Shown: positions 608-60,208 of the stretch, one piece after another
Layout: each line of letters starts with the position of its first letter
Position numbering within the stretch: the stretch's first letter is position 1
Assembly: GCA_002633005.1 (NCBI GenBank)
Contig: NMRA01000521.1
Span: 69,446-133,445, forward strand
Length of the DNA: 64,000 nucleotides
Reading direction: 5' to 3'
Source: Phoronis australis
Lineage: Eukaryota; Animalia; Phoronida
Notes under the pieces: model-generated
Told to the model about the DNA's origin: nothing
Seen by the model: the letters and a program-made list of their open reading frames with translations, nothing else
The model's database searches: none
Position numbers and translations under genes: made by a program

Positions 608-832
608 GTTTGGGTCAAGCTCTTCTGCACTCGGCATATACCAGAAGCTTCCTTCCAGTCCATCAACATTAGATATAAGTTTGTCGTCGGTGAAATTAGG
701 GTCACTCCCAGCAAGATTTCGTAAAACATCTTGAATAGCTGTGAGCGTATTGCAAAATGCAACAAAGTACACCCCCTCCTCTCTGGAAAGCCCAGTTTCA
801 GATATCCCGTAGGGCAGTGACTGACGATACAG
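608..832 (-). CDS. Paralog exon F (LYRQSLPYG...GSFWYMPSAEELDPN)
   Basis: tttaag|CTG ... AAC|gtgagt on the minus strand. Confidence 0.9.
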
Positions 833-3800
833 CTTAAAATGTACAAAAGAATCGAACACGCATGATTATTCTCAGATACAAATTCAGCATTCGCTGAACG
901 TTACGACATATAATTTAGAAATAAGCAACTGTTACATAAGACTAACAAATTTAGTTGATTGCAGAAATACATGCTCCTGAGTTTTAAAGCGACATTCATG
1001 CACCATTTAATATAAACTTAGGGACAATTTATGTACATCAGATACTCGGTTATTATAAGACAGTTTGTGAAGCCACTTCATTCTTGTTGGTATTATGGGG
1101 GTTTTCATTATTTTATAGCTTGATTGAACCCGACGGGAAGATGTTTCTCAAATGATAGAATGCCTGGCAAAGTATTTACAGGTAGAGTAATCATATTGGT
1201 TGCGATGCCATCGAATGACAAAAATGAAAGATATCCTTTCTGTAACTTTTACACGAGATATATAGAAATGGTGTACCTTGTGGGCAACTTGTCCTTTCTC
1301 GTTTAAAACACGTGCTCTTTTAATGTGACTTCTTTCATCGTTCATCGGAATAATGCAGCCATTGACTTTTCGTCCAATCATGTCTTCCTTTTCATTCATT
1401 TGCATGTCATTGAGCAGACTCCATGAGAACTTAAACTTCTGGGTGAAGCAATAGGTACCTCCTAAAATAAAATATAGAAGAACAAGAGGTACAGTGCATG
1501 AGATAATGAAGCGGAAAGAAATTTAGGTTTGATGTATATGCAGCGTGAGGTTTATTGACAAAAACGTGGGCCAATGCTCTTGCTCGATTCCTCTGCACGA
1601 AGCCAAACTCATACGGATAACACATGTTAGTTAACCACCTGTGTGGTGAGCGGTGGCGTTTTGATGATTCTGTTCGTTACAAACAACCAAATTTTCAGTT
1701 ATCCTTTCAAATACTAATATTTTAAGGAAATGAAGAAATAGCTTGGTGAGTAGACACGTAACTTAACGTACTGCTCGCGGAGATAGTAGGACCTACTAGG
1801 GCATTAGCAGTACGGCGGTTGCTGTTTTGTCGCAAACCATTGTGAAAGCCAATGTCTCGTGGGTACAGCGTGACAGAAGAGACTGTTGTTGCACTTAATT
1901 AAAGAGATTGGGAACTTGCAACAAATACACGTGTGTGGAGGGAGTACGACGATTACCTACGTGCAGATAAGTTGCCAAGATTTCCAAGCACAAAGCGGCC
2001 CTCTTGGTTATTTACAGGCGAAATGGTGCGATCATAGTCAATTAGGGGTCAACATGTATTATTTTAACAATGTAGGCAAAAATATTATCGAATTGCTTTG
2101 AATTTTGTCAACAATAACAAACAAGTGTAACTTAACTGAAGCCAACGAATTCAAGACACAGAGAAAATATCAGTACCAAAGCTACACTAGGTTATGCCTA
2201 CACGAGCATAGGTGTGCAGTGCCGTAACTGAATTCGTGAAAATCATCACAAAGCAATAATGATGGAATAAAATGACTTACCCAGGGCTCCATTTCGACCG
2301 GCTTGCGTTTGTGGTCCTGTAAGGATGTACCGCTCCAAAGACTCTACATCAAACGTGTTTTCCAAGCCATCTTGAAATCTTCCTTCAATAACTCGTGAAT
2401 TCTTTGCCACTGAGGGTAAGACCTGTTGACAGAAGGCAACCGATGTTGTTTACGTTATTATGGCAGAGTTCAGTGCAATTCTAGCATTTATTGCATACAA
2501 TGGGTCAATAACAGTGTCTCAGTGTGCGATGCGACCTCAACTGGCTGGCTGGTGTGCAAGTAAGTTGAGCAGGTGAGAAAATAAGAACACAATTTAATAA
2601 GCTAATCTTTACTTTACACGCCTTGACCTGAGCAGTCTATTTTTTACTTGCAACAGGCAGCTGAGCTGTTAACTCCCAAAACACTGGGCCTTTGAGTGGT
2701 GAGGTTTCCGTAGGCCAAGTTCCTTCTGAATAAAAGACATCTGTGTTTCGAAGTATACTAGGGAGGGGATTTAAGCTATCCCAGCAAAACTGCGGCCACT
2801 GACGAGTGAGACCTGGGGTGTTTTCACTCCAAAAGCAATACATTTGGCCGTAAGCCACACAGGCATGGCTGAATAGATAGTCATAAACGCGTGACAGTAT
2901 TTTAAGCTTGCTTTATTCGAGAAAAAGGCTGTGTAACTTTAATCCGTTGCAATGCATTCCTTATTTATCTCAAGCCCAATTTCCTTAACCTTTAACTGAA
3001 TTTCAGTAAATGATTGGTAATTGATATATAGTTGAAGAGAAAGAGGTTTCCATACATTGGCCAGGTGGCGCCTCTGGTGGCTACCCAGACAGATTGTTTG
3101 GTAGGTGAATATTCATAAAGCACTTTGCTCCGAGATATTAATTATTAGCTTACTTAATTTATCGAAACCAATATCTCTGTCCATTGTTTGAGTATTATCT
3201 AAATTCGATGAAACTACATTCGCTCTGGATCCGAACAGCATCAGTCCTACTGCGGGAATTTGTCATTAGGACCAGATTGGAAATGAACGGTAAGGTTTTC
3301 TAAAGTCAATGCTCCACTTCAAGGAAAAATGCCGTTCTCGTCTTTTCACGTTTGCTCTTAACAATAGGGCCATTGTCGTCGTAGCATGAGTGGTGTTGTT
3401 TTCCATCAAATGTGCGGAAATCTTGAGGATGTGCACGTATAACACAAGATTCATATATGGGCCCTGCAGAGAAGACAGGAAATCGTACAACAGAGCTTCC
3501 CTGCAGGTCTGTGGCAGCAAATACATGACAGAGTTGTTCAGTGGAAGATTAACAACCATGCTATGCAAAAAAGACGTTGCTCCGCAGCGTCACGTCAGCA
3601 AGATTTTTGAAACGACCATAACGATACGGGTATAACCTTACTTCATAGGAGATGAGCTTTCGTAGTTTTCCCAGGTATATATCGTGCATCTTTTTGGACA
3701 GTTTCTCGAGATCGTCATGGCTGTCGGACTTCAGATAGAAAAACACATCGGTGTTGCCGCCGTTCTTGAACTTGGTGGATCCATCGATTAAGTACGAGCT

Positions 3801-5376
3801 TTCCGGGCGCTGCTCCAAATTGTAGCCTTTGTTGGGAAACCTATCGGTAAAACCAAAACACATAAATACGTAAATATATCTCTCATTGCAATCTATCCAT
3901 TAAAAGATCGATGGATTTGATTGTTGTGATCGACAGGTCATAGCGATGTCTCCATGTTAACCGACATGTACCAACAATGCAATACATTGTGGATACAAAA
4001 CAACGAGTGAGTTACAATGTCTATTTTACCTGCATGTACATGTACATCTGGACAGACTATGGCTTAACTTTGCAAACTATTCGGCGAATAAAATATCAGG
4101 TTTTCCAACAGTCCTTAAGTTAAGCTACGTTGTATTCAAGACAAACTACAATGTTTTTAGATTCATTCGGAGCTGTGTTTGTTAAAATGTCTGACCTTGA
4201 CATAAGCCTAACGGTTATTAAAGCAGCGTTCTGGCATTCACATACATGTATCTGATCAGATAGCAAGATGACCTTCCTAGGTGAAAAGCTGAAGAAACTG
4301 TTTCAAATTGCCGCCTCAAGTGTCACCCAAAAACGCACTGTTGATACAACGTACTTTAGAACTGGAATGCACAACCTTACCATCCATCCCATAATTTAGG
4401 ATTGACCCCAACTAGAATTCTTGCCCTGGATTGGTCGGTGTCTAAACTTCTGCTATATTTCAACAGTTGCTGCATCTGCAAGTAAATATGTTAGGAAATC
4501 AAAACAAGACTCGTTGTTAGTGTAGTCAGATGAATATATCGAGACAAGGATGCAGTAAAGCTAAAACGAGTGAATTTACATGAAAAATATACAAACCAGC
4601 TTACATGTACATCTGTTCAAGATTTTGTCATTTGTTTCACTTTGAGCCAGTATTGTACTATCAATACTTTTGAGCAGCAAATCCCAATTAAAAATATAGT
4701 GTTATAAGCAAAACCTAGCAACAAAAATAACGTTTTGATACGTGTACATTTCTACGGAACAATGGCGACAGGTTGCATTGGAAATTACTGCGGTTGTCCA
4801 CTTGCGATTTAAAGCAAGGATAATTTAATTGTGTCCGATAAAACGTAATATATTAGTAAACTAGTTTTCCAGCTTCACACAATCTACTTCTGTTATCGTC
4901 CATTGTTATTCGGCAGCTCAAGTTCCGGGCATTCCGTGATATTTTGAGCTAAGATTTAGTTAAGACAGCAAAAGCATGCTCAGTCGTTGTCTTGCGAATT
5001 ACAACTAGCATATGCGTGTACATGTACATCTAAATTGTGACGTTTATAAAAAAATTCCTTGGACAGCTTTCGCTCAAAGCTTCAGTTCCTGAACTTATTG
5101 CATAACGTGGATGTTTGCGTTTGGCACAGCCGTTGCTGAAACACAACGGTACTCATCGACGAGGACGAATGTGTGCAAGCAAGGTGGAACACGTAATTGC
5201 ATAACAGTAGAACTTACAGAAGACAAGAAAAGCTTTCTAGAGTCGGTACTTGGGACAGCGTCTCCACGGAGGTCAACGGTGATGAACTTGCCGTAGGTGG
5301 GTTTATAAAAGAACAATCCAGGTTGACTCTTCGACATAGCATCCCCAGATTGAATCTTGCCATCTTGTTTACTGGC
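608..5376 (-). CDS. Second (inverted, divergent) paralog of the DyP(-GRE) gene; six DyP-domain exons, continuing or ending beyond the left window edge
   Basis: Exons 5218-5376 (159), 4381-4475 (95), 3642-3840 (199), 2281-2422 (142), 1277-1461 (185) and 608-832 (225) have the same lengths, phases and GT-AG sites as the + copy. Open frame with RFQDGLEN, SHIKRA and LYRQSLPYG intact. Confidence 0.88.
1277..1461 (-). CDS. Paralog exon E (GGTYCFTQKFKFSW...SHIKRARV...)
   Basis: ttttag|GA ... AAG|gtacac on the minus strand. Confidence 0.88.
2281..2422 (-). CDS. Paralog exon D (VLPSVAKNSRVIEGRFQDGLENTFDVESL...)
   Basis: aacag|GTC ... G|gtaagt on the minus strand; DyP Asp motif. Confidence 0.87.
3642..3840 (-). 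CDS. Paralog exon C (FPNKGYNLEQRPESSYLIDG...ISYE)
   Basis: gatag|G ... GAA|gtaagg on the minus strand. Confidence 0.87.
4381..4475 (-). CDS. Paralog exon B (MQQLLKYSRSLDTDQSRARILVGVNPKLWDGW)
   Basis: ttgcag|ATG ... TG|gtaag on the minus strand. Confidence 0.85.
5218..5376 (-). CDS. Paralog exon A (ASKQDGKIQSGDAMSKSQPGLFFYKPTYGKF...)
   Basis: ctcacag|GCC ... TCT|gtaag on the minus strand. Confidence 0.85.
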
Positions 5377-28796: not shown

Positions 28797-28948
28797 AGCC
28801 TCTCCAGTAGGAGACAGTAGCCTCTCCAGTAGGAGGCAGTAGCCTCTCCAGTAGGAGACAGTAGCCTATCCAGTAGGAGACAGTAGCCTCTCCAGTAGGA
28901 GACAGTAGCCTCTCCAGTAGGAGACAGTAGCCTCTCCAGTAGGAGACA
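28797..28948. repeat. 22-bp minisatellite (AGCCTCTCCAGTAGGAGACAGT) x~7 with an internal hairpin TCTCC-AGTA-GGAGA
   Basis: Period of 22 (TCTCC at 28801, 28823...) with no spacers. Confidence 0.9.
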
Positions 28949-41700: not shown

Positions 41701-42066
41701 CCCCTTATGGTGCACCGCCAATACAGCACGTGCGGCATAGCACTGAAAAAAGTGGGGGGCGCCGCCCATGTTTCACTCCACCCTATCGGTCTCTACCGAT
41801 TTTGTGGTCACGCTTTATCCATGTGTGTGAAGGAAACCACCCAGTCTTAATACCTCTTATCCACTCTGTGGTCACCAACACGGTTTGAGTTGATTCTAGG
41901 TTAGCGTCTGTGAAGGAGCTATTCGCTGTGCAAACAGGCTATCCGCTCGCCACTGATAAAATGACGGTAGAAGAATGGAGGCAACTGTACAGTATCTGAT
42001 AAGCGTCACAGCAGTTTCAACGTCTAATCAAAAACTGTAATCGCCTATAAACATTATTTTTGACAG

Positions 42067-42225
42067 GTTCCCAACCAAGATGGTGAGATTCAACCTGGAG
42101 AGGCCATGTCGAAAAGCCAGCCTGGGTTGTTCTTCTATAAGCCTACCTATGGCAAGTTTATCACTGTTGACTTGCGGGGAGACGCTGTCCCAAGGACTGA
42201 CTACAAGAACCATTTCCTGACGTCT
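42067..42225 (+). CDS. Fusion gene exon A (VPNQDGEIQPGEAMSKSQPGLFFYKPTYGKFITVDL...), DyP N-terminal region
   Basis: tgacag|GTT ... TCT|gtaag; 159 nt, the same length as the paralog exon 5218-5376; possible in-frame ATG at 42106. Confidence 0.85.
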
Positions 42226-45200
42226 GTAAGTTCAACTGACATCCCTACTCTTAAATCTATTTGACATTATTGTCTCACTGTACCCATTCAGTGAGGAGTA
42301 ATGTTGTCTGTTTAAAGTAACTTGTCTCGACAGATTGTGTACGTATGCTGAAAATACATGCACGAACTGGCTACATCTGCAATTATGCGGTGGGTTCTTT
42401 GGGTACCTACTGAATGAGACAAATCACGAAGTGATACAATGGCCTATTTTTAAAAGAGCACTGTCTGTGTGGTGCGGCAGCATGACGATTAACGTCGCGA
42501 TTTCGCCTACCAACACACGTAAGTTATGGCGATTTATAGAAACTGGCATGATATCGATAAACGAACATCCAAACCGTTGCAAATGTTAACAAGATTGAGA
42601 TACGGCACAAACAAAACGGACTTCTACAGAAATCAGGTAGAAATTTCGTCACCTACCTCCCTACATGTACGTCGAACCATTGTCAAAGTTTGAAATTGAA
42701 GTTGTTTGATAACTACTGCACCATATATTTATACAAAACGAGCTATCCGTTTACTATAAGATAGAATATATAGCAAGACCACACCATTCAATCAGTGCCT
42801 TCTGTCATACCCGATCCGCAGAAATTACTTAAGCATTTCAGTTTGTCCATATTTCGACAAGGGCTGAATTTACTTGGATTGGGAATTATTACTACGAAAT
42901 TGCTTATACAGGTAATTTTAACCAATTCAAAGGCTCTTGAAAAATGCTTAACGGAAAGTAAAACATATACACAAAGCGTCTTTGAGTATGTCATGGCAGT
43001 CACTGGTTTCTGTAATACACTGATGACACTAACAATACTTCTTGGTTTGTATACCTGTCCAATACATTTATCTTCTCACAGGTGCAGCAAATGGTGGAAT
43101 ATAGCCGAAATTTAGATTCCAAGCAGTCTCGAACTAGAATTCTGGTAGGAGTCAATCCCAAATTGTGGGATGAATGGTAAGGACGGGCATAAGAGAAGAT
43201 ATACATTGCATCACAACAAAACACCCGGAATAAAAGAGCGCCTTTAGGTGGCACTCTAGGCTACATTTCGGTGCAATATATACATGTAATTGTTGTTCTC
43301 CGGACACTATTATTGCTACCGGCTAAGATTCTTCAGTGTTTGAAATAATTATTTTGCGTACGTCAAATTCTAACACTTCAAGGAACAAAACTGTTTACTA
43401 ATCGTTTACACAAACCATTCCATTTCACTCTTACCTGCAGGTATTTGCTATATTTCGACATTGTTATCACTCGGTGATTGTCAATATCGTAAATCGAACT
43501 ACATGTATATCCATACGCTTCGAAGAGAAAGTGAATAGTTACCTTTTTGGGCTTCGCTGTTAGGTTTCCCAACAAAGACTACAATTTGGAACAACGTCCA
43601 GAAAGTTCGTTTTTAGTCGATGGATCCACAAAGTTCAAGAATGGTGGCAACACCGATTTGTTTCTCTATCTCAAGTCTGACTGTCAAGAAGATCTCGAGA
43701 AACTATCCAAAATGATGCACGACATATACTTGGGGAAGCTTGAGGAGCTCATCTCATATCATGTAAGATTTTTAACTTTCCTGATGGTCCGTTAAACAAT
43801 TTTGACTAAGAAATGCTGTAGAATTACATGTAAGCTTAGCGCAAACTTTTGAGGTCTTGTTCCCCCAACGTTTAAGCGAGCCAAAGCCAAACTGTGGCTA
43901 ACCCGTCCTATTCGATTCACAAATTAATGCTCGTGGCTTAGCCGCGATGATGAAGAAAGTACTCGCTAAGTTCTCTTATAATGCATAGACGGCTACTGTT
44001 TAGTTTTTCATTTTAAAAGCAGTCGTATCATGAATGCCAGATTTACGTTGAAATCTAGACACTGACATCTTTGGAATAACAAAATCGACTAATTTCTGAA
44101 AACAGGTCATGTCGTCAGTGCCAAAAAAGTCTGGAGTTATCGAAGGTAGGTTTCAAGACGGCTTGGAAAACACATTTGATGTCCAGTCATTGGAGCGGTA
44201 TATACTTACAGGACCTCAAACTCAAGCCGGTCGTAATGGAGCCTTGGGTAAGAAAATGTGTTAGAGTCTCTCAGTTTGGAATATTTATCCACCAAACCTC
44301 CGCATGTTGAGTGATCACGTGCCTGGCATTATTAGGTCTATACCGGGGAAAAAGAAATAAAAAGTCACGTTACATTGCTAAACGCTTCCCGGATCCTGTT
44401 TTTTTTTCATTCATGTAATAAGGGACATTTATACACGTGAAACATTTACAAATCCGGATAATATGGTGTTCGCCGACAACTGTAATTGCACCTCTTGTAT
44501 GTTCCTGCGTAGTTGAGACTGACTAGTTGCAGAGGTCGATAAAAATTTTCAAAAGGGTTAGTAATGTATAGCGCTACACAAAACCTGGCCTAATTATTAA
44601 TGTGTATGATTTTGTTATTCTAATTTTATTTGACGGGGTCCAAAACATCAAAATAATGTCATAGTAAACAATCCCACACTAGTGATACACTTTTCGTGTA
44701 TATCAGGAGTAGATAACATCGCTGTATTCAATTTCTCTTAGACTTTAATGTTGACGAAATGCCAAGTGTTACCTGAAATAGAACGGTTTCAAAACACTAC
44801 ATTGGCCTTTATTTAACCGTGGTGGCATCAGAGCACATGAGTGCAACCAAAATGGGCGCATTTTTCTTAAAACTCTTGACCGTCATTCGCGGAAATTGTA
44901 CCCTCCACAAACGTGGCCAAGTTAGACGTGCACGTACTGATATCCGAGAACTTGGCTGTCAAAATTTTTTGTGGAACTCCGGTTCATTTTTTTCTAAAAG
45001 CCAAGTTCTCGGGGAAAGAACGTGACATAAAACCATGAGTTCACATTTGTACACCAGTAGCTTATATAAGGAGAACGAGTATTTACTATTTTAATTGTCT
45101 TAGGCAGTTATTCTACCATGTGACATCGATCAAAATCGGCAACTGAAAACACCCGAGTACTTAATTCGTCGACCGAAAAACATCCAAGTACTTTATTCGT

Positions 45201-48200
45201 GCCCAGTACGCCGCCTAGGGCTGAATTTCTGTGCTCATCCAGGTTTTTCATAAGTGAATTGTAATATTAGTTATTTGAGAAGTGAACTGAATAAACTCGA
45301 CCTGCTAGTATCTACCATCAACACGTTATCCAGGAGATTTGACGACTATATACATGTAACATGTGTGGTCAACATGAATTTGACTTCGCACAAGAGTGAT
45401 CGGACAAGAACATTACCACACAGTTGTGTTAATGAACACAAAACCTAAGTGCGGGGAATCGCTTTTATCTCTCAGTTCATATAGTTTTGTGTTTTATTCT
45501 AGGAGGTACCTATTGCTTCACGCAGAAGTTTCAGTTCTCCTGGAATCTGCTTAATGGAATGCACATGGGCGAAAAAGAAGACATGATTGGACGAAAAGTT
45601 AATGGTTGCATTATTCCACTGAATGACGAAAGAAGTCACATTAAAAGAGCACGTGTTTTGAACGAGGAAGGGCAAATTTCCCATAAGGTACTGGAACATA
45701 AATACTTCGCTCGCGAAAGTTATGACGTTACGCATACGGTTATCTTTTATGATTTTCGTTCGTGTCATCATGACCAAGATTGTTACTATATCATGTAGTC
45801 AGTTTGAAAACATTCTACCATTTGGCCAACTTCTTCTCAATATTCCCATTGGAAGTGTAAAATAAAGAAACTCCTCTCAATAACAACACGGATAAACTTT
45901 CGTCCCAAAGTGTTTCCACGAGTGCTGTATCTGATGTACATAAATCGTCATAACCGTTTATAGTAAGAGTTACGTGTACATGAATATGGTTTTAAAACAA
46001 AGGTACCTGTATTTTTGTGCAGCGAAATGACTATATTGCCCATGTGTTCTAAAAGTCTGTGTAAGAAGCAAGTACGCTGAAGATGACATTGTATCTAAGA
46101 AGAAAACTCGTGCAAATTTATCCTGAAGTACATTCACAGGGATTTAATCAATCCTGAAGTACATTCACAGGGATTTAATCAAGAGCTCAGATTCCAGATT
46201 ATTTCTAAATATTTAGTTGTTTGTACTGTTAGCGAATGCTGAATTTATATCCAATAATAATCATGCATATTTCATTCTTTTGTACATTTAAGCTGTATCG
46301 TCAGTCACTGCCCTACGGGATATCTGAAACTGGGCTTTCCAGAGAAGAGGGGGTATACTTTGTTGCATTTTGCAATACGCTCACAGCTATTCAAGATGTT
46401 TTACGAAATCTTGCTGGGAGTGACCCAAACTTCACCGAAGACAAACTTATATCTAATGTTGATGGACTGGAAGGAAGCTTCTGGTATATGCCGAGTGCAG
46501 AAGAGCTTGACTCAAACGTGAGTAACAGCAAACATGGGATTTTTAGTCAAAACTTCAATGGCAGTTAATAATAATTAACAACCCAAAAGGTAATTCCCCC
46601 ACCTGCTTTCAGTGACGTCACTTGTTGATGTTGGTATAGATTTTCCGGGTGGTCGTAGAAAATCCACTGTTCCCAAATTAGAACATAGACGACATTAATA
46701 AAGAACAAGCTGCTTCTCGTCAAGCTTATGGAAACAGATTGAGTCTATGAAGGGGCTATTTACACGACCGTATGTTATCTGAAACCAGATAATCATAAGT
46801 TAGAAGGTGGTGGCAATTGTTCTTCAAAGAGAGCTTCTTGCATAAGTATTTTAACCCTTATTGTTCCTGCTATATCCGGTAGGAGCCTAGCCGCGCTCAA
46901 ATTATTCGTCTAAGATCTTAAGTCACAATTTACAACCGTGGACAATAACACGATACTCAGTTGTGTTGCTGTGTATGGCTTAGATAACAGATAATTTCTG
47001 TGTTTTACCTCACTTAGGTATTTTCTCATATGTATTTCATCCCGTGATGTTGATATTTAATCAAACAAAACATTACGGAGCAAGATCGCGGAAGTTCGAG
47101 TCGAAGCATCCAGGAATTGGGCACCGCAAAACTTATCTTGAACTTCTCGGAAGCATTCGTGTTTTTGTCCGGGATAAATGAGCTTGTTTCACAAATTAAT
47201 TGAAAATTCTGTAAATTAACCACCGTATTTCAAAAATACGTTTACAATGAAATTTGGCGAAAGCGTGCCCCTGAGGAACATATTCAGGGAGTTGTAATTT
47301 TAAAGCCTCATGTGTTAGGTATTTCAGTAGTTATGTCAGTTTGCTATTACTCAGATTTGATTGTATTTGTTCAGGTCGGAATACAAGTACATAATATATG
47401 TAATTGGTTCATCATGCCGATCAACATCCCACATGGAATTAATTCCGCATTCAAATCAGTTTCAGCCCGATAAGGTTCCCGACCTTGACCTTTTGGATCA
47501 CTGGAACGTGAAACCAAAAACCAATCCGTACATGTTTTATAACTCGACGGAGTACATGCACCGTATGAGTACGGGGGCGTATGTTGATCAGGAAGATATT
47601 CCTTCTCCCCGGGTTCTCAAGCTCCTCCATAACACGTTTGCGCAGTGGAGAAATAGGTATGTTCTTGAACAACACATTTATCAGGTTTCATGAAATGAAG
47701 TCAAAGTATTTGTGCTCTACATGAGAAGTATCAGGAGTGCATGTAAGGGTTTCTGTGGTTTGTGGTTTGAAGTCCCATCCAAATAGCTCCCTTTATTCAC
47801 AGTTTTCTTATAAAAGCTTACATACATCGTTGAAGCCGTCCTTTCAGAATTTACAAGTTTTTCAATGTCTCGGCATACCCAAATCACACCCCGTCAACAC
47901 ATTCTTGGAACCAACTACTACAGTATAGATGTAGCACTAGACTGATTACCAAAGGTGCAGGTCATTGTAAAGCGAAATAGCTAAAGCGTTTTCAGTTAAT
48001 AGAAATTAAGCTCAGTGCCCATCTTATCACCCCAGTCATTAAAATTCCAGTTTCACCAAATTTTCGAGCAACCCTTCACTCAGTCTCTACAACTTCTATG
48101 GTCCCCTTTAGTAACAAGATGTGTACCAACTTTCACGTTCCTAATGGTTCTTCAAATAGTATGCCCTGTAATTCATTGCAAGTTTATATAATGATACAAT

Positions 48201-51200
48201 ATATTTTACTCATTCAGGTACGCAGTAATCAAATTCGCTCGTTGAGTGTAGCAAACTCTTGAATGTGATTGTATTGATACCGTGATCTGAAGACCAAACA
48301 ATTTCCGAAACTCGAATGGAACAAATTCCATAGCACGCTGTGAGTAAACTTCCGAACCAATCTCGAACAATGCTGCATGAGTGGTTAAATTACCCAATGT
48401 TAGTCCGTGCCTAGTTTGATCCCTTAGAATAGGTCCTGGAATGTGTTGTACTCAAGTTTGTAAATATCAGTACATGTACTTCGCTTTTCCTAATGCAGAT
48501 GGTACGTGAAGCCCGTTGTACCAGAGTACAGGCATTTAAAGAATTATGTGCACCGTTTTCTCGATGACCCTGACGACTTCTATCAGCTAAGCGTACCCCG
48601 CCGCAAGGGGTACGCGAATAAGATGACTTTGGGAGTTGCTATCACGGAAGAATACTACGGGAAAAAGGCTGACTTGTTTAGGATTTTCCCGGACGAAATA
48701 ATTGTGGGTGTAATGCCTCATTTTAGTCTGGGTCTTGGAAAGGTACGCGTGCACTTTAAACATTTTGAAGATATATGAGAGTTTTTGTAAATGTTTTGTA
48801 GCATCTGAGCAATAAAACATTAACTTCTAAGCTGCTATAATATAGCGACAAAAATTATTATGAATTGTCGTTTTTGATTTCCTCGATAAAGATTGCTGAA
48901 TTGATAGTACCGACGAACGAAATCAGAGTCTTGTCCATATAGTTTAAATGTCAGTCCTCTTGTATACTCCAAGCAAGATTTAGTTAATGGATTTAAACGT
49001 GGGTGGTGTTTTTTCGCGAAGTTGCTTCATAAAAAATATACGTTATCCAAAAATTAAACCTTTTCAGTTTTCGTTTTAACAAGCACACATACCTACCATA
49101 CAATTGATATGCCATGTGAAGAGCCACAATATTTAGAGACATTGCTACATTACAGGTTGTCATGCCTTATCTGAGCGAGATCGAGACGGAGGAGGCCTTC
49201 AGCGTGTATCTAAGTGAAGCAGGAATGATGGGGCACGTTGTACCAGATCACGGCGAACTTGTCACCAAAGGCATTGGGCAACTGATACAAGAGATTAAGC
49301 AGAATGCTCAAGTCGCAACCCTGGACCAGGATCAGAAAGAGTTTTACAACTCCGCATTGTCTTCCCTAGAAGGTGTTCAGATGTATATGACCAATTTCGC
49401 AGACTTGGCAATGAAAATCTCTTATGAGGATAACCTTCCCAAGAATCAGGTAGCGGTTGTTGTTTGATCAAAAATTTTATAGTTGGTTCTGGTCTGTACT
49501 TAACTTAGTTTGATACCATCGCTCCCTGACTAACACCACGATTTGCCAAGTGACCAGTAAAAACAAATAGCGCATCATTTTGCTAGTCTCGGGTGAAATT
49601 TAACAATTACTGTAAAGTAAAAAACAAGCCATAGTCAACCGTTTCTTTCGCCTTATTTCTTTTTATACAGTTTGCATATGTAATGACGTCATATGCGCAT
49701 TTACTTGTCGAAGGAAACATGTTAGCATAGTCATGAGATTGTTCCCTGTTTCGTTGCCATTTCGATGTACATGACAGGCACTTTAGCCTACTGAAAACCT
49801 ACCTTATCACGTCCACAGCTACCGCAATTCCTTCCCACACAATCAGCTACTAATCATCGCTCAAACCATTGATTTTTGTGAATAACATAGAGTTATCAAT
49901 GGTGAATTTCCGAAAGCACCGGCGACTCTGTACACTGAATGCAGATCTTGAACTCAAAACAAAAAAGGACACAATTCCAAGCACCACACATCACATACAC
50001 TCGCCACCAAACCGCAACAATGATACTCCAAGGAATGCTAAAAAATGAACATGGCCATCGCTTACCAGCACTTACTAAAGGCAGCTTAAAGAAGTAGATA
50101 ATTAATTTATATCACTTGCCGCTTGGAATGAGTCATTCTAATTTACGGACATGTATTCCAAATATGCACAGATACACACTAATGTACACAGATGATCACG
50201 AACCTGCCATCCAATTCAATCATCAAGTATCTTTAATTGCGGTTACATGTACAGTAATGCATGCATATTATATACAGGTACGCTGCATCACGTATAATTC
50301 TGCAAAATTCATTTACTTGGTTATGTGCGCTGCATATGGTCAACTGTTGATGACAGACTTGGTTGGAGTGCTTGTTGGCCATCTGGTTGAGTTTTTAAGA
50401 GACTCCAAACTCCAAAGACACCTAGCAGCATTCAGTTCAAATTAGCGTCGCATGGCATGTATTGGCGATCATGCTCTTCATGGTAAAAGGGTGCCTTTTC
50501 TTGTCATAGTGTGTTTTAAATTCCTCAGATTTGCATCTAAGTTTTGCTAAAAAATTAACCAACGTATTCGCTATCAATACAACAGCTCAAAACCGTTCAT
50601 TATTTTGTAGGTTGACAGCTTGCGACAAATTCACGAGCGTCTAAACAGGTTGTCGGTGAAGCCTCCTGTTACATTTACTGACGCAGTTCAACTCCTGTTC
50701 TCGTTCCACTGTTGTCTTCATAACATTGGCGAGCCTGTTGCTCTTGGAAGACTTGATCAGATTCTGCTACCATTCCTCGATAAGACTAACCCAGGGGTAA
50801 GAAAATAACTGCCATTATAGAACTCTGGCTGCTGTTAATACCACATACATGTATGAGTATTTGTCAGTTGGTTTAAGTAGAAGGGAAAATACCTTCAAGT
50901 GTCAGTAATGCAGCGTGCTTGAAGATTTCGAGAAATGTAGCAATACGTACACTTGCATTTTCTGAGACTTTATTAAAAAGAATGACTTCCTTTGTATAGG
51001 ATGTACCCCCGCAGGACGTGATCGATGCGTTTTGCTTGAAACTTAGTGAGCGCGTGGAAATGAACAGGCATTTTATCAAAGACCTGGTTTACCCGGGGGT
51101 TACTGCCGTTTTCTACCAGACTACTGGCAACTTTCCCCAAGGAGGAGGTTAGTTTTCTATACGTTCCTAATATTGAATTTACAATTAAAATATATCTATA

Positions 51201-54200
51201 CGTTGTATCTGTGCCATCGAGTGACAAGTTTTCGAATTCTATTTTATTTCTTAATAAATTCTGCAAAATGTTGCCCTTTGCATTGAAAATGTTTGGCTAT
51301 CAAAAGGTGTTGCATATACAGGCTAAAGTTTTACAAAGTTGCAAACCCTGAAAAACTAATCTTTTGGCTCTCGGATGTTTGTGTTCACAAACAACACTCC
51401 ACAACTCAATATCTCTCCAACAATACGACGCTCGATAGCATTGTGGTTTCCTTACAAGTAGTAACTTGATTAAAATAACTTTGGTTTCGTGAATCGATAT
51501 AATGGGTAATATCTTTACTTAATTGTTTATTCAACAAAATTTGTAAGGACGTGCAAACTTTGGTGGCGCTGCAAAAATGATTGCTGCGCGTTGTTGTTTA
51601 GGACACGTTTTGTTCTAGCATCAACTGTAACAACGCATATTAAGTGGAGGCGCACGTTTTCGAAACTGCTGAACCACTGTACTTTGGACTCGACAACACA
51701 GTTTCAAGCACAATTGCTATTTCGTGCAAGTTGTGAATAGTTATATAAACGAGTAAAACAACCTCTGCTTTTTATCTTTCGCTCACAAGGTACTTTTCTT
51801 TCATGTGGTAGGAATCAATCAATGGGTACAACAAGTAACTCTCGGCGGATACAAGGCAACTGACGAAGCAAAGCCGTCTCCGGGAATAAACGACCTAACT
51901 TTAATGTTTCTCAAAGCCACTCGCCGTCTTCCGTTGAACGCACCTTGTTTTTCTCTGCGCCTTTATAAAGGTATCGAGGATACAAAACTGGGGCAGGATA
52001 TCGTGAAGGAAACTGCAAAGGCTCTTCTCAGTGGTGGAGCTCATCCAATCATATTCAATGATGACCGGCTCGTGTCTGGCTTGCTGACGAGCGGCGTAAA
52101 ACCCTATCAGGTTAGAAAATGGGCCTTACAAACCGAAATGACGGTCCTCCTAACTATTAATTCCTATAACGAATCTTGTGATAAGTTTGTGCTTGCTTTC
52201 AACAGCTGGCAGCGCTCATGGACAGGTTAGATGCCATCAATATTTATTTTTGTAACCTACTGTGCATTTTGCCAAATTCGGCTCACAAAAGCCACCTGTA
52301 GACGCTAAAAAGCTCACTATCCACTACAATTAGACGATGTGAATGCCCTCTCATGGAGTTTCGTTGCCAGTGTTATTCATGTCACTGACTGTACGCGGTT
52401 CGGACTCGAAGAGTCATCCTTCCAGTATGATCACTTACATTAACCTTCCAGACCTTAATGTAAAACGATTCTTATCTGTTTTGCGATATTCACTTAGGTT
52501 CCGCTGTATGCCGCAAGGGATTACGCTTGTGACGGATGCTATGAACCAATGGTTGCAGGGGCCTCAGAATTTGCCTTCATTACTATTCCTTTACTGAACA
52601 TAGTGGAAATGGCTATTAACGAAGGCACTCTGTTCAAGATGGCTGGACCTGTGTTCTTACGCGGGAAGAAATCGTCATACAAAACTAAGCCTCCGGAAGA
52701 GATACAGGATTTCAAAGAACTAATGTCTATCTTTGGACGACATCTCCATCTCCAAATTGTTAACTCGTGTTTGTTTATGCTTCAGAACTACGGAAACATG
52801 TGGAAGGTACAGGAGATGTTATTTACTTAAGTCGGTTAACTTAATGAGCGAAAATGACAGGAGAGCTTTCAGCTCCAGATACACTTTCAAGCGAACTACA
52901 ATTAGTCTAATAATGTCCACAGCAACAAGCTGACAATGTGTCACGTGACGAAAATGTGAAAAATGTATACCATACCTATATATCTAACCGTATTTAGTTC
53001 GAATGGCGGTTCCATATATTTAGGATGATTCATTCCAAATAGGTAATTAACAGTTTTTCATGAACGTTATGCCGATTGAAAACAGGATCTTACTTTCTCT
53101 TGGACAGCTGAAATTACACTTGCTCATACTCTGTGAACAATTTCCCATTTCCCTCTCTGCACTTGTGAAGCAAATTGTAAACAGCATTATAAACACACAA
53201 ATTTAAATAGTGGCTATATTTCGAGGTCATGAAAGCATGTGAAGCCATTATTTTAAGTTGTTTTCTTGTAATGTCTTTGAAAGTCCTTTAAAGTGCACAC
53301 TGGAAGACCGGAAAGTGTACAGACAGCATGAGCGAGTGTATATCAAGCTATCCAACAGAAAATACAGTTGTGTTTTCAATCATATGTACGTCAAAACCAA
53401 AATATATTTGTCTGTAAAATAAACAAGAATGTTTAATATCTTTTTCTGGATACACACCTATATTTTTTTCTTTAAAGTGGTGCCCTTCTTCACTTTTGTC
53501 AACCATCATCAAAGGATGCAAAGAAACTGGAAGAGACTTGTCAAACGGAGGTGCACTTTACCATATTCTGGCCATAATGTTCGTGGGTGCCTCGAACGCT
53601 ATTGATTCTCTGTATCGCATTAAAAAAATGGTTTTTGATCCTTGCACAGCTATTACTGATCTCGTAGACCTCGTTAATTGTCTAAAGGTACGTACTGTTC
53701 CGTGTTGTGTGTAACTGTCGGTTGTCAAATGGGACATATTTGTCGGTGTACTAGCCTATGGCTAATGTTTTCTCGTTGTTTGACCAACCGACTATAAATA
53801 AAATGACCTGAATTGGTCATAGATGTTTAAATTGTTCGATTTCACGCTGTTGGGGTATACCGGAAAACAACCTTAACAAAGCCCCTTTCCCCAGCACAGA
53901 CTAGACGTTCATGTATCATGAATAAAACGCATATTCGGGCTGGGATTAACATTTTTCATCTAAAACGGAAGAAACTTGTTAAGTATTGACTTTTTATTTA
54001 GTTGGAAATACAAGTTAATTAAAACAGAAGTGGGCTATTACGTCCAAGCTAGAACCACAGACGGTTTATTCTTTTTAATGTAAGTAAGAATTTGCGTTAA
54101 ATTATCGAGCATACTCGTAGGTTTCATCCGTCTAGTGATATGCAGAGAAGGCTTTCGTGAGAAAAGATCTTAGCAATGTGTTTGTCGATAAAGTACTACA

Positions 54201-55323
54201 TGACTGAATCGTTGGTACATGGGCTGCACAGCACTGAAAAATGTGGGAGTATACCCCTTCCCCCAGCCCCCTATGTTGCGCTACGCACGTGGTACAGTAA
54301 TTTTTAACTCTGCCAAAATCCGTTAAACCTAAGTGCATGATATACATGTACGTCTTACTAGAACTATTTAGCAGTTTGGTCAAACACTTGTCGAAATTTG
54401 GTAGTTCTTTTAGACGAAAAACATTCATGCATGCGTTGCTATTCACTGAGTCATCGTTGTCTTGTATAATTCGAACACTATCGTATTTAGTTACACAAGG
54501 CTTCTTCGCAGTGGCTAGCAATCATAGTATTTGGTACTGAAAAGAGAAACATAACGATACATGTGTATGTGTTACCGAAAACAGTGATGAACAATGAGCT
54601 GAGGTGTACGGGGATTTCCGAAGGGTAAGCCAATGTGCCAAAACTTTCAGGCGTCTTAGTAACACCAAAAAGACAACCGTGCGTTTATTCGGGGAAGTCT
54701 GATGTGTAAACGAAAAGTCATATTTTCTTATTTTTACTGAAAACAGGTTTTTTTTTAATTTTTTGTTAGTTCGTCAACACTTTGTTCGTTTTCACGAAAG
54801 ATAAATGCGCCACAAAATTAAACTTATAACTAAAAGTTGACTCTGAATGAGCTTTTAAGAGGAAGTTTTCCAGATGAGCCCTCCACTTTCTGGACACTTG
54901 ATACCTGAAGTTGTAACCATCGAATAAAAGCTTATCGGCGTTTATTTGTCATAATTTTTCGAATAAACGCCCATGGGCGTTTCATCGGGTGGAGTTATCC
55001 ACGTAAAAAAGGTTTCGTTTTAAACCTGACAAGTTATCCTTGCATATGTATTTAAGTGTGACTGGGGATACGACATGAAGGAGCCTATGCAAGACATTAG
55101 AGCTGGAACAACAAGGTCTGTGGCCCATGGAGAGAAATACAAGAGATATCGACAAGTGGCCATGTCTTTCCCTAGGTTCGGGGAGGGAGTTGAAGATATC
55201 GATCAGCTGGGACATGAATTGATGAAGATGGTCTACGACGAAGTGAGAAACGTTGTAAACTGCGCACCAGTCAAGGTAACTCTCACCGAGTCCCGTTTAG
55301 ATCAGTACTAGCTGTATGGATAA

Positions 55324-55388
<65 letters not shown>

Positions 55389-57123
55389 TTCATAATCGAT
55401 AAAGTCTAGGAAGTCTGATGCAAAAATACACAGAAACATAGATGGCAAAATCACAAACGCAAGACACTATGTACATGAATGTGCGATGCGCAGCCGTAGG
55501 CAACGTTTATAACGGGAACAGTGGGTGCGGAATTGTTGTTTGCTAACAATTTGCATTGCTTTCCACTAATCAAATTAAATAAGAACCATTTTCGAGAGTC
55601 GGACGCGAACTAATTTTGGTCGATTACGTGAGCCGACCTGTCGCGCGGTTGGTGCCTTCACACTTGTTGCACCTCTTGGCTAAGGGCATGAACCTGCACC
55701 CTCTTTTGTTACAGACTCGAATGGAAAAACTGCGGCAAGAGTTCAACCTGTCTGGCTTCATCTTCACCCCTGGTACTGGTACGTTCGAAGGTTACGTAGG
55801 TGCAGGTTTGGACAACGGCGCGTCAGCTGATGGACGTCGAAGTGGTCAGCCGATTTGTTCAGATTTCAGTCCAAGCCCTAATCCACAAGACCTTGCGGCA
55901 GCTCCCATCTCGAGATATATATACAAGTAGGTAAAACCTTCTGACTATTGGCCCGTTACTTTTTGTTCATTTGTTGGTGCCACATGCATTGTAGTCAGTG
56001 TGACGCATATTTCAAATGACTCGCAATAGATAAAAGGAATAGTGCAACTGTCCTTATACGAAATCTTCCGAAAGAAGTGAACGGCTCGAGAGGGCAATGG
56101 CAAACTTCTGCGAGCATGAACAATATGCGGTTGCAAGGTTGGTCTGTCCGCGCGCAAAGTGATATATATCCGCAAAAGGTGAAAACTGGTTCGGGAGGCG
56201 AAATATGGGTCCTCACCGATGGAACATCGTGTTCTCCTAAAAATGTACCAAAAAGAATTAGAAATGTTTGAATCTGATTATTCTGCTGTTTTTTCCTCGA
56301 TTTTGGCAATACATAAAGGAAGCCTCGTCATCTAACCAACTGCGGAAGGTGTTAAACTGCTTATACATGTACATGGCTTTGCAGTGGCTTAAAAAGCTGG
56401 AACACTGAAGTGATCAACAGAGGATTCAGCAACGGCGCTCCAGTGGATCTGAACATAACAGAAAGAACCTCTCAAAATTTCCTGGAGACGTTCATAAAGG
56501 ACTTTGCTAATGAAAGAAATGGGATTGGTTCCAACCTGCTCACTCGTAAGTGGGTTGACACTTAAATAGGCCAGAGGCTTTCGCACTGTTCTCTCCTCAA
56601 TTATTTTCGGTCCAAAATGATTTACAACAGCTAATCTGGTAATTTCCCGAAATGGTTTTTAAAGCAAATTAGACCTTACTAATCACCGTGTGAGTTCCTA
56701 CTCTTCTCCAGTTAACAAAACATCCGAAGCCAATTGTAGTGATTTCTAGCTACGTAATTGCATTGGCATCTCACTATCTCATTATATTTTATACACTATC
56801 AGAATGCTAACTCACACCCGCCTTACCTTCAGGCTTCTGAAGCTGCACTGTCTTTCATTGTTGCAGTATCCTGTCACGATCCAGATACTCTGACTGCCGC
56901 ACGTGACGACCCTGAACGCTACGAACTCGTTCGCTGCAGACAAGGTGGCTGGACAGAGTACTTCTCAATTATGTTCCCTGAGCATCAAAAGCATCACCAG
57001 AGAAGAATCTACTTCGACGGCATCAAACGGGATGTGGGCAAAAGCAGACACCTACGCACAAAGCTGCAGTACAGAGATGACGGGGAGGACGTGGAAGATG
57101 ATATAGTGGACGCACTATTCTAA
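42067..57123 (+). CDS. Multi-exon gene (>=18 coding exons) encoding a DyP-type heme peroxidase-glycyl radical enzyme (PFL-like/Gly_radical) fusion protein, >=1244 aa
   Basis: Manual splice assembly: 42067-42225, 43082-43176, 43564-43762, 44106-44247, 45503-45687, 46293-46517, 47466-47656, 48499-48742, 49156-49449, 50611-50796, 51000-51147, 51812-52110, 52498-52806, 53478-53687, 55057-55275, 55715-55926, 56385-56545, 56867-57123. All introns are GT..AG with matching phases; total 3735 nt, one open frame ending at TAA 57121-57123. DyP motifs: GRFQDGLEN, GGTYCFTQKF, MIGRK, SHIKRA, LYRQSLPYG, GVYFVAF. GRE motifs: GHVVPD, PVTFTDAVQ, LGRLDQILLPF, QVTLGG, DGCYEP, GASADGRRSGQPICSDFSP, PERYELVRCRQGGWTEYF. 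First coding exon not located. Confidence 0.88.
43082..43176 (+). CDS. Fusion gene exon B (VQQMVEYSRNLDSKQSRTRILVGVNPKLWDEW)
   Basis: ctcacag|GTG ... TG|gtaag; 95 nt, phase 0/2; homologous to 4381-4475. Confidence 0.85.
43564..43762 (+). CDS. Fusion gene exon C (FPNKDYNLEQRPESS...TDLFLYLKSD...ISYH)
   Basis: ttag|G ... CAT|gtaag; 199 nt; DLFLYLKSD resembles the DyP 'DL.l.i.s' strand; homologous to 3642-3840. Confidence 0.87.
44106..44247 (+). CDS. Fusion gene exon D with the DyP distal-Asp motif (EGRFQDGLEN)
   Basis: aacag|GTC ... TTG G|gtaag; 142 nt; matches the DyP GxxDG(xxN) motif; not captured by the ORF track. Confidence 0.87.
45503..45687 (+). CDS. Fusion gene exon E (GGTYCFTQKFQFSW...MIGRK...SHIKRAR), DyP proximal heme His
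   Basis: ttctag|GA ... AAG|gtactg; 185 nt; canonical DyP GGsY...IGR...SHI.rA pattern. Confidence 0.9.
46293..46517 (+). CDS. Fusion gene exon F (LYRQSLPYG...GVYFVAFC...DKLI...GSFWYMPS), DyP distal Arg and C-terminus
   Basis: tttaag|CTG ... AAC|gtgagt; 225 nt. Confidence 0.9.
47466..47656 (+). CDS. Fusion gene exon G, linker (PDKVPDLDLLDHWNVK...PYMFYNSTEYMHRM...QWRNR)
   Basis: ttcag|CCC ... AG|gtatgt; phase 0 start matches exon F; an alternative in-frame acceptor lies 6 nt upstream. Confidence 0.8.
48499..48742 (+). CDS. Fusion gene exon H (WYVKPVVP...ADLFRIFPDEIIVGVMP...), start of the GRE-like region
   Basis: atgcag|A ... AAG|gtacgc; 244 nt; I.PDEIIVG matches the GRE N-terminal 'I..gElIVG' motif. 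Confidence 0.85.
49156..49449 (+). CDS. Fusion gene exon I (...GHVVPDHGELVTKGIGQLIQEI...EFYNSALSSLEGV...)
   Basis: ttacag|GTT ... CAG|gtagcg; 294 nt; GRE 'GH..PDy..ll..G...i' and 'eFY.a....l.gv' patterns. Confidence 0.87.
50611..50796 (+). CDS. Fusion gene exon J (KPPVTFTDAVQLLF...LGRLDQILLPFL)
   Basis: ttgtag|GTT ... GGG|gtaag; 186 nt; GRE 'P.tF.eAlQ' and 'GRlDQyL.Pf' motifs. Confidence 0.9.
51000..51147 (+). CDS. Fusion gene exon K (DVPPQDVIDAFCLKLSER...GNFPQGG)
   Basis: gtatag|GAT ... GGA G|gttagt; 148 nt; GRE 'AqElid.f.lK' helix; absent from the + ORF track. Confidence 0.83.
51812..52110 (+). CDS. Fusion gene exon L (INQWVQQVTLGG...NDLTLMFLKA...APCFSLRL...GGAHPIIFNDD)
   Basis: gtggtag|GA ... 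CAG|gttaga; 299 nt; GRE 'qnlTlGG', 'N.lsy..L.a', 'P.l.vR' and 'G.P.f.ND' motifs. Confidence 0.9.
52498..52806 (+). CDS. Fusion gene exon M with the GRE catalytic Cys loop (ARDYACDGCYEP)
   Basis: cttag|GTT ... AAG|gtacag; 309 nt; matches the GRE 'ArdYa..GCvEp' motif. Confidence 0.9.
53478..53687 (+). CDS. Fusion gene exon N (CPSSLLSTIIKGCKETGRDLSNGGALY...GASNAIDSLYRIKKMVFD)
   Basis: ttaaag|TGG ... AAG|gtacgt; 210 nt; GRE 'P.pflS....gCie.GkD...GGA.Y' and 'G.a...DSL.aIKklVfd' motifs. Confidence 0.9.
55057..55275 (+). CDS. Fusion gene exon O (CDWGYDMKEP...FPRFGEGVEDIDQLG...)
   Basis: tttaag|TGT ... AAG|gtaact; 219 nt; GRE 'PKyGNd...vD' equivalent. Confidence 0.87.
55326..55385. repeat. (AT)n microsatellite in an intron of the fusion gene
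   Basis: Pure ATATAT run of ~60 nt. Confidence 0.95.
55715..55926 (+). CDS. Fusion gene exon P (...GASADGRRSGQPICSDFSPSP...)
   Basis: ttacag|ACT ... AA|gtaggt; 212 nt; GRE 'gAtpDGR..g.plsdg.SP' motif. Confidence 0.9.
56385..56545 (+). CDS. Fusion gene exon Q (GLKSWNTEVINRGFSNGAPVDLNI...GIGSNLLT)
   Basis: ttgcag|T ... C|gtaagt; 161 nt, phases 2/1 fit both neighbouring exons; not in the + ORF track. Confidence 0.83.
56867..57123 (+). CDS. Fusion gene terminal exon R with the glycyl-radical loop (DPDTLTAARDDPERYELVRCRQGGWTEYF...QRR)
   Basis: ttgcag|TA ... TAA; aligns with the GRE C-terminal 'd.etL.dAq.hPE.Y.dLiVRVaGYsayF..L....Q..iI.R' motif. Confidence 0.9.
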
Positions 57124-59557: not shown

Positions 59558-60208
59558 CTATTGATTGATCGTGTTACCATCTTTCGCACCATTTGTAGCC
59601 GGTAAGACTTCATTTCCTATGCTATACTGCGTGTCGTTACCTGTTTGGTTCACTTTATGATAGCCGTTGGTTTCATCAGCCAACTTTCCACTTTCTGTTT
59701 TGTCTGTTATGCATGCAGTCTGAAGACTCTTGGAATAAGCTAGTTTTATTGAACTTCCAACCGGACCGCTTAATGTCTTGTTAAGGCTCTGATCTATGTG
59801 TGTAGTGATCTTACTCATCAGCGCTTCTTTGGTTTTACTTCTTTCGTCTAACATCAGTTTTAGATCGCCCATTTCGAGCAACAAAAGGTCCATATCTTTC
59901 TCAAGTCGTATTCGCCTTTTCGTGTGCTGACTATGGTTCAAGATACACAATATCAACAATGCCAATGTCATCATTAAGAGCAGTGCTATGATGATAGCTT
60001 CGGTAATGATGCTCCTTTCATCTGAAAATGTAAAAGCATACGTACTATTACTTAACAAAACATCATTTCCATGAACGTACATCCCCTGACCGTGATTTTC
60101 CATTATAGACAATAGCCCTTTTGAATGACATGTCATTTCAGTTTGTATCAAACTGCAAATTCCCAGCTCAAGATACACCTGTAATTGCATGTTCTTGTCA
60201 GCCAACAA
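59558..60208 (-). CDS. Possible single-pass membrane protein (3' part of a gene or pseudogene), function unknown
   Basis: 216-codon ORF in AT-rich DNA; hydrophobic segment IITEAIIIALLLMMTLALLILCIL followed by basic HTKRRIR; the upstream frame is broken by a stop. Confidence 0.4.
   Translation of the reverse strand: MLADKNMQLQVYLELGICSLIQTEMTCHSKGLLSIMENHGQGMYVHGNDVLLSNSTYAFTFSDERSIITEAIIIALLLMMTLALLILCILNHSQHTKRRIRLEKDMDLLLLEMGDLKLMLDERSKTKEALMSKITTHIDQSLNKTLSGPVGSSIKLAYSKSLQTACITDKTESGKLADETNGYHKVNQTGNDTQYSIGNEVLPATNGAKDGNTINQ

Follow-up and report, generated by a model that had tools for sequence, protein, structure and literature searches.

A spliced gene of the phoronid Phoronis australis that fuses a peroxidase to a glycyl radical enzyme-type domain, and its animal relatives

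Glycyl radical enzymes (GREs) are seen as enzymes of anoxic microbes that rely on an activase of the radical S-adenosylmethionine (SAM) type. A 64,000-nucleotide stretch of the genome of the phoronid Phoronis australis (contig NMRA01000521.1, positions 69,446 to 133,445 of the forward strand; this whole stretch is called the window below, and positions are counted within it) carries a gene that joins a dye-decolorizing peroxidase (DyP) to such an enzyme in one reading frame. This raises the question whether an animal truly owns and expresses the gene, and, if so, what would start a radical in its product. The locus (copy 1) had been flagged in a sequence-only reading of the window, which missed a second copy (copy 2) in the same stretch.

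Copy 1 comprises 18 exons (A to R) on the plus strand between 42067 and 57123, with 17 of 17 introns being GT-AG, phases that close, intron lengths of 203-1369 bases and a GC content of 46% in exons versus 38% in introns. With exon G starting at 47466 and exon Q at 56385, the frame has 1244 codons from 42067 and rebuilds exactly the 18-exon, 1244-amino-acid frame of the sequence-only reading, whose five DyP and GRE motifs are all present and whose two catalytic sets are intact. With exon G from 47460, the frame has 1246 codons and 1233 amino acids counted from the methionine at 42106, from which all residue numbers below are counted. The exon G acceptor in sister-copy reads is the equivalent of 47460, and both 47460 and 47466 are candidates in copy 1. 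In both copies the frame of exon A is open upstream to its own acceptor; no upstream first exon was found, the upstream regions of copies 1 and 2 being without shared sequence, and a scan for an ATG followed by a donor upstream of exon A gave no convincing candidate.

Searches with single exons gave Pfam matches over the curated cut-off for Dyp_perox_C on exons E and F and for PFL-like on exons I, J, L, M and N. PFL-like on exon O remained below the cut-off, and 11 of the 18 exons had no Pfam match. Gly_radical, also foreseen by the sequence-only reading, was not matched on exon R. The Rfam search gave 0 matches. Aligned with known fusions of DyP and a pyruvate formate-lyase (PFL)-like domain, the spliced model was colinear over its whole length and 40-46% identical, which excludes chance.

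Indeed, and as had been guessed from the sequence, similar architectures are in print for fungi and bacteria in two papers. A fused DyP-PFL (dyprx), the meaning of which was termed elusive, is described from Chaetomium (PMC5041501), and subclass P2 consists of DyP plus PFL and is called unexplored, with protection from H2O2 as its proposed role (PMC9719856). Therefore the fusion was not made in Phoronis australis. The window protein has the makeup of subclass P2, with an N-terminal class P DyP and a C-terminal PFL-like domain in one chain that is homologous to the fungal and bacterial fusions. In their available parts, both papers name only bacteria and ascomycetes as hosts of the fusion in the text (PMC5041501, PMC9719856), while a supplement lists without comment two Branchiostoma floridae DyPs of 1220 and 1214 amino acids, which is fusion length (PMC5041501, 2016). 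DyPs of many metazoans are reported in subclass P1 (PMC9719856), which corrects the earlier view that DyPs are no part of the textbook metazoan repertoire. No discussion of the fusion in animals was found in the literature searched, from which subscription journals were largely absent, and metazoan P2 members may be drawn in the supplement or figures of PMC9719856. The architecture is thus already known and uncharacterised, and an old, expressed animal clade is the part that we did not find in print.

A tblastn search of the window with the model revealed copy 2, which occupies 5376 to 608 of the minus strand and stands head to head to copy 1 at a distance of 36.7 kilobases. Its exons A' to F' fall inside the window, and the remainder runs past the left end. 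Both copies have the same exon lengths and the same intron positions, the copy 2 frame is open, and the two are 85% identical over 335 amino acids. Their differences comprise 36 first, 14 second and 95 third codon positions, a pattern that is a sign of purifying selection acting between the copies. At third positions, 5 of 75 differ in exon F, compared with 11 of 31 to 25 of 53 in exons A-D, and exon F with its flanks (598-924 versus 46199-46527) is 92% identical. Because this region is far more alike than exons A-D, the comparison suggests that it was likely homogenised by gene conversion.

Transcription was assessed in three raw stranded RNA runs from one study, chosen by species label, of which about 18-19% each was read, and joints were collected at 90% and then at 96% likeness. 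Among the joints listed, those on the sense strand at 90% were E-F, F-G, G-H, H-I, I-J, J-K, K-L, P-Q and Q-R; the 96% collection added C-D (4 reads), L-M, M-N and O-P and gave P-Q and Q-R with clean ends. At least 13 of the 17 introns were thus joined in RNA among the listed joints, with N-O represented by a loose read end only and A-B, B-C and D-E absent. These joints back the earlier claim of a real, spliced animal gene with one DyP-GRE transcript. Reads across the F-G joint, the check proposed for a single transcript, do exist (40, 22 and 6 reads), but they carry the letters of the sister copy and not those of copy 1: all 6 exon F differences in the reads match copy 2, and exon G begins with letters unlike copy 1 in all F-G reads listed. 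Most RNA reads stem from copy 2 or a near-identical further copy. The splice that joins DyP to GRE is therefore shown for copy 2 or such a further copy. For copy 1 it is inferred; spliced reads of this copy's own type occur at a lower level in its DyP and GRE halves alike. A DNA run (X1), which may be the window's own sample, showed no exon-exon joints and yielded a contig spanning 46482-48525 without differences.

These data also bear on rival readings of copy 1, namely recent transfer from bacteria, contamination, decay of a duplicate or a split into two separate genes. Copy 1 provides only about 5-15% of the reads at 5 of the 6 exon F sites, no copy-1-type F-G read is among those listed, antisense RNA covers its DyP half, and the 46% identity of the model to animal proteins is barely above the 45% to bacterial ones, all of which speak for such readings. 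On the other hand, the 17 introns are present in DNA and removed in RNA, the frame is open, copy-1-type joints occur in both halves, the intron positions are common to both copies, and the protein forms a clade with those of other animals, in line with the earlier argument against contamination. We consider an artefact or decay very improbable. The antisense RNA (window 41800-45967, minus strand) is itself spliced and overlaps the DyP half of copy 1; it could damp this weakly expressed copy.

A bacterial member used as query found 748 relatives among 7999 candidates, and in the best 120 of these 748 the named ones were bacteria and ascomycetes; full-length bacterial and ascomycete relatives are 38-45% identical to the model. 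Occurrence in bacteria is sporadic: the gene was present in a single genome out of 301 for the family of genome G003, in 3 out of 19 for its genus, in 2 out of 301 for the class of G001 (G005 being one of the two) and in 8 of 72,556 plasmid records. A contig from a viral collection (L093) also carries the fusion (39% identity). A word-based search with exon M returned 7 proteins from 32 candidates, none named as animal, and exon M against 50% representatives returned 69 proteins. In blastp, the 12 top-ranking matches to the model were lancelet and sea star proteins (44-46%). Looking up 30 proteins, together with a search that used the sea star protein as query, identified animal homologs in five named phyla: Patiria miniata (7 records), Branchiostoma (8 clusters), Mytilus coruscus, Hydractinia, Porites (4 species), Macrobrachium (2) and Halocaridina. 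Their RefSeq/GenBank names are automatic ('uncharacterized', 'sulfopropanediol dehydratase-like', 'PflD'), and the Branchiostoma homologs have a Q in the Gly loop in common with the window protein. Protist homologs came from Phalansterium, Pelomyxa, Mastigamoeba and Diaphanoeca.

Several homologs deviate in outline. Lancelet and sea star proteins (P0124, P0188, P0208-P0214) begin with short Lys/Arg-rich stretches, which we take to resemble classical nuclear localisation signals, whereas the coral, prawn, fungal and bacterial homologs shown are without them. Porites lobata P0250 has three consecutive DyP-GRE units, which are probably tandem genes merged in the record, and added domains are C2 in Diaphanoeca (P0162), DUF2278 in Pelomyxa (P0151) and a C-type lectin in Mytilus (P0127), the last probably a merged model. 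P0154 and P0178 belong to a second group of DyP-GRE proteins, whose DyP is of another type (DyP_N). Because its place in the tree is among unfused GREs, the two domains were likely paired on more than one occasion.

Comparing these sequences in unrooted trees placed the window protein with the other animals. In a FastTree analysis of 201 rows (the model plus 200 of 232 hits at ≥60% coverage), one clade with support 98 comprised all 19 rows from animals plus 2 unnamed ones, uniting the window protein with those of Branchiostoma, Patiria, Porites, Hydractinia, Mytilus coruscus, Macrobrachium and Halocaridina. IQ-TREE with LG+G4 on 36 rows without Pelomyxa recovered the animal clade at 100/98 with Phalansterium as sister (97/98), and a C20 mixture on 24 rows recovered it at 94. 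Trees of the single domains gave the animal clade as well (91 for DyP, 81 for GRE), and since both domains agree separately, the fusion came as a unit. Against this, the long Pelomyxa branch fell inside the animals in a set of 37 hand-picked rows, in which animal monophyly was not rejected (p 0.135). The window protein is itself a long branch and groups with lancelets and sea star with weak support (55/91). A position of the window protein as sister to the nine nearest bacteria was rejected (p-AU, approximately unbiased test, 3.9e-6). Three further groupings were rejected under LG+G4 with long branches present: a single clade of all eukaryotes (p 9e-69), the animals joined to the choanoflagellate (p 6e-86) and the animals joined to the fungal group (p 0.022).

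Judged by the animal clade and the rejected bacterial sister position, the gene is neither a recent transfer nor a contaminant and is likely an old, patchily kept animal gene. Of the two origins offered by the sequence-only reading, patchy retention fits, but a recent transfer from the nearest bacteria does not; the phylogenies it proposed map the taxonomic distribution and point to no particular donor. The branching pattern likely reflects a single entry into the animal stem, or retention there, before cnidarians and bilaterians diverged, followed by many losses, with transfer among animals as a possible alternative. Apart from animals, sequences of Chromobacterium, Janthinobacterium, Collimonas and Andreprevotia nest inside the ascomycetes in the FastTree analysis and are sister to them in the smaller IQ-TREE set. 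On account of this nesting, fungi may have been the donors and bacteria the recipients, opposite to the direction given in PMC5041501.

Both active sites are conserved throughout the family. H231, C792 and E794 are present in 178 of 178 fused full-length homologs, G1176 in 176 (the other 2 being gaps), and R250 and an acidic residue (D or E) at position 156 in 171 each. By sequence, the DyP half has the distal Asp (D156), distal Arg (R250) and proximal His (H231) of its family, and the PFL-like barrel is indicated by the Pfam matches on 5 exons, the invariant C792 and the fold of the bacterial homolog P0006. The Gly loop has R, G1176 and W in place and aligned with solved GREs, with Q replacing the V of the C-terminal GRE fingerprint RVXG[FWY] (PMC11528403); across the family this position is Q, M or T, and Pfam Gly_radical stays below its cut-off in single-unit members.

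PFL proper has an adjacent Cys-Cys pair. The window protein has a single Cys followed by Tyr-Glu, which rules out PFL proper, and animal homologs reach at most 28.5 of 994 bits on TIGR01255. Choline trimethylamine-lyase (CutC) was also dismissed: His496 aligns with the Asp of its GGD motif, and animal homologs score 130-139 of 1050 bits on TIGR04394. The four animal homologs compared lie far under every named NCBIfam cut-off. AlphaFold2 was applied to P0006 only, which is 42% identical to the window model, with a 62-row alignment, and gave a pLDDT of 91.8 and a pTM of 0.92 for the whole chain. The latter suggests that the DyP and GRE domains are fixed relative to each other in the predicted structure. 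Residues 9-312 of P0006 match KpDyP (Z 33.6), in agreement with the two-ferredoxin fold of DyPs, and residues ~352-1196 match whole GRE chains (Z 34.2), so that the whole GRE-type fold expected by the sequence-only reading was found, on the bacterial homolog.

What would start the radical? At slightly less than even confidence, we propose peroxide-driven self-activation, in which the DyP heme starts the GRE radical in place of a radical-SAM activase. H2O2 would convert the heme (H231, D156, R250) to compound I, and the oxidising equivalent would pass via conserved Trp/Tyr residues to Cys792 and Gly1176, with Y312 (W312 region) and the linker residues W337, Y349 and Y354 as relay candidates. 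The thiyl radical would then take a hydrogen from a small hydroxylated substrate, leading to a dehydratase- or lyase-type elimination, which we favour because His496 and Cys-x-Glu match glycerol dehydratase. A relay via W389, the most conserved Trp, was dropped: since 9 of 10 relatives that are unfused or belong to the second clade also have this residue, it is structural and no sign of a relay.

The search for an activase covered the window, 85 microbial loci (74 of them single-ORF fusions, ORF denoting open reading frame, with flanks of 0 to 8 kilobases) and 5 carrier genomes. No radical-SAM motif occurs in the six frames of the window, where an intron-split motif would escape, and no GRE activase lies beside the fusion in the 85 loci. 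CxxxCxxC was present in 12 of their 1747 ORFs; one is radical-SAM-like and was identified as MtaB by a scan, and the other 11 were judged by eye. Weak activase-model matches in L010 and L012, which presumably are MoaA-like and RlmN-like, respectively, were not taken as activases. The fusion is the sole PFL-like gene in the 5 carrier genomes, none of which has TIGR02494, TIGR02493 or NrdG over the cut-off; in the 14 controls, each of these models exceeded its cut-off in 3. TIGR02494 is also absent from all 19 genomes in the genus of G003, 3 of which carry the fusion. The earlier statement that the enzyme needs a radical-SAM activase thus finds no support at these loci and genomes.

A conventional GRE with an unlinked radical-SAM activase, working at low oxygen while the DyP only clears peroxide for protection as proposed in PMC9719856, would explain why the Gly loop is kept in nearly all fused homologs. 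A putative PFL activase sits elsewhere in the Chaetomium genome, where the fusion gene is induced 3-fold by H2O2 and 18.5-fold by peroxyacetic acid (PMC5041501), and anaerobic amoebae carry the fusion. The failure to find an activase argues the other way, as does the chemistry. O2 cleaves glycyl radicals, and a peroxidase removes no O2. We regard this explanation as unlikely, if a serious one. Less probable still is a barrel without a stored radical that binds substrate or oxidant for the peroxidase, or acts as redox sink or sensor in peroxide stress. The Q, M or T at the V of the fingerprint (PMC11528403), the low Gly_radical scores and the peroxide induction in the fungus (PMC5041501) would suit it, yet Cys792, Glu794 and Gly1176 are near-invariant across bacteria, fungi and animals at ~40% identity, which points to radical chemistry.

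Self-activation by peroxide has its own difficulties, and the following weigh against it. The cleavage of glycyl radicals by O2 is hard to square with aerobic hosts. The occurrence of the fusion in anaerobic amoebae, the Chaetomium activase and the presence of W389 in unfused relatives fit it poorly, and the literature found holds no biochemistry for any family member. The 5 carrier genomes are metagenome-assembled with completeness not given, one being labelled a complete chromosome and one, G005, being unpublished, and the whole genomes covered by the activase search were microbial. More tentative again, and somewhat doubtful to us, is the proposal that animals have had, since before the cnidarian-bilaterian split, a GRE-type enzyme self-started by heme and H2O2, free of SAM and iron-sulfur and active in aerobic tissue.

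Genes beside the fusion recur in the 85 loci, with related contigs counted: phosphoesterases (9 and 8), PLD-like (7 and 6) and GMC oxidoreductase (5), the last a possible peroxide source. In L002-L005, L058-L061 and L071-L079, genes for phosphoesterases, one of them fused to DNase II, and for PLD-like proteins stand beside the bacterial fusion, a hint at a role in lipid head groups or defence.

Table 1 Positions of the exons of both DyP-GRE copies and of the antisense intron in the window
Feature	Position	Strand	Remarks
Copy 1 exon A	42067..42225	+	First in-frame Met 42106; aligns with family N-termini; A-B joint not among listed RNA joints
Copy 1 exon B, DyP N-terminal half	43082..43176	+	Alignment to family and copy 2
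Copy 1 exon C, DyP N-terminal half	43564..43762	+	C-D joint, 4 copy-1-type reads
Copy 1 exon D, distal Asp156 codon 44157-44159	44106..44247	+	
Copy 1 exon E, proximal His231 codon 45637-45639	45503..45687	+	Pfam Dyp_perox_C; E-F joint
Copy 1 exon F, distal Arg250 codon 46299-46301, DyP domain ends	46293..46517	+	Pfam Dyp_perox_C; F-G joint
Copy 1 exon G, linker W337/Y349/Y354 and GRE start	47460..47656	+	Alternative acceptor 47466
Copy 1 exon H, GRE N-terminal part	48499..48742	+	G-H, H-I joints
Copy 1 exon I, His496 of GH motif	49156..49449	+	Pfam PFL-like
Copy 1 exon J	50611..50796	+	Pfam PFL-like; RNA joints
Copy 1 exon K	51000..51147	+	J-K, K-L joints
Copy 1 exon L	51812..52110	+	Pfam PFL-like; L-M joint
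Copy 1 exon M, Cys loop, Cys792 codon 52537-52539, Glu794	52498..52806	+	Pfam PFL-like
Copy 1 exon N	53478..53687	+	Pfam PFL-like; M-N joint
Copy 1 exon O	55057..55275	+	O-P joint; N-O loose end only
Copy 1 exon P	55715..55926	+	P-Q joint
Copy 1 exon Q	56385..56545	+	Joint 55926/56385, 7 copy-1-type reads
Copy 1 exon R, Gly loop, Gly1176 codon 56947-56949, stop 57121-57123	56867..57123	+	Q-R joint; Gly loop aligns with solved GREs
Copy 2 exon A'	5218..5376	-	tblastn and comparison with copy 1
Copy 2 exon B'	4381..4475	-	tblastn and comparison with copy 1
Copy 2 exon C'	3642..3840	-	tblastn and comparison with copy 1
Copy 2 exon D'	2281..2422	-	tblastn and comparison with copy 1
Copy 2 exon E'	1277..1461	-	Letters of E' present in RNA reads
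Copy 2 exon F'	608..832	-	Main RNA read source; 6 of 6 differences from exon F in reads
Antisense RNA intron	44338..45819	-	Joint 44337/45819, CT..AC, 9 and 5 opposite-strand reads; overlaps DyP half of copy 1

Elsewhere, the window contains an element at 20354-21697 whose inverted ends measure 319 bases and whose THAP-like ORF lies at 20623-20847 (Pfam E 2.7e-4, below cut-off), and a decayed element resembling a long terminal repeat retrotransposon at 29870-32900 with an RT_RNaseH match on 32304-32894. A 226-codon stop-free frame on the minus strand (59558-60238) with one hydrophobic stretch, a coiled-coil-like tail and no Pfam match is probably the last exon of a membrane protein. Tandem arrays lie at 7071-8477 (unit 450 bases), 26814-27291 (unit 39) and 28791-28948 (unit 22).

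An expressed, often multi-copy animal fusion with activase-less microbial relatives turns the origin of the radical, and its use in animals, into a testable question. If self-activation is true, this would be the first case of GRE chemistry in an animal and a new route to start this radical family, and a peroxide-started, SAM-free GRE would be a useful biocatalyst. If the DyP merely protects, GREs would still be extended into animals.

Comparing the window gene with known systems, its closest counterpart is DyP subclass P2 (fused DyP B-PFL), which has the same architecture, a length of ~1200 amino acids, 40-45% identity and the same catalytic sets; the window gene differs from published P2 members in its animal host, 17 introns, two copies and separate branch. 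The predicted fold of P0006 resembles class P DyPs (KpDyP 6fks, YfeX 5gt2, DtpB) with a Z of 33.6 and a root-mean-square deviation (rmsd) of 2.1 Å over 288 residues, and the Asp/His/Arg set is the same, whereas identity is ~22% and the window protein is fused to a GRE. With GRE eliminases (glycerol/propanediol dehydratase 1r8w, 5i2g; CutC 5fau; HypD; PflD), the family has the whole barrel with Cys and Gly loops in common (P0006: Z 34, rmsd 2.5-2.8 Å, ~700 residues), and His496 and Cys-x-Glu of the window protein match glycerol dehydratase. In contrast to these eliminases, it shows ~21-24% identity, no activase beside it, a fused peroxidase and a His where CutC has Asp. In mechanism, the window protein may be likened to prostaglandin H synthase, which starts its own tyrosyl radical, and to class I ribonucleotide reductase, in which a thiyl radical is fed into the same barrel: in both, the starter folds are different, and a heme or metal centre starts a protein radical via Tyr/Trp, as the DyP heme would do here.

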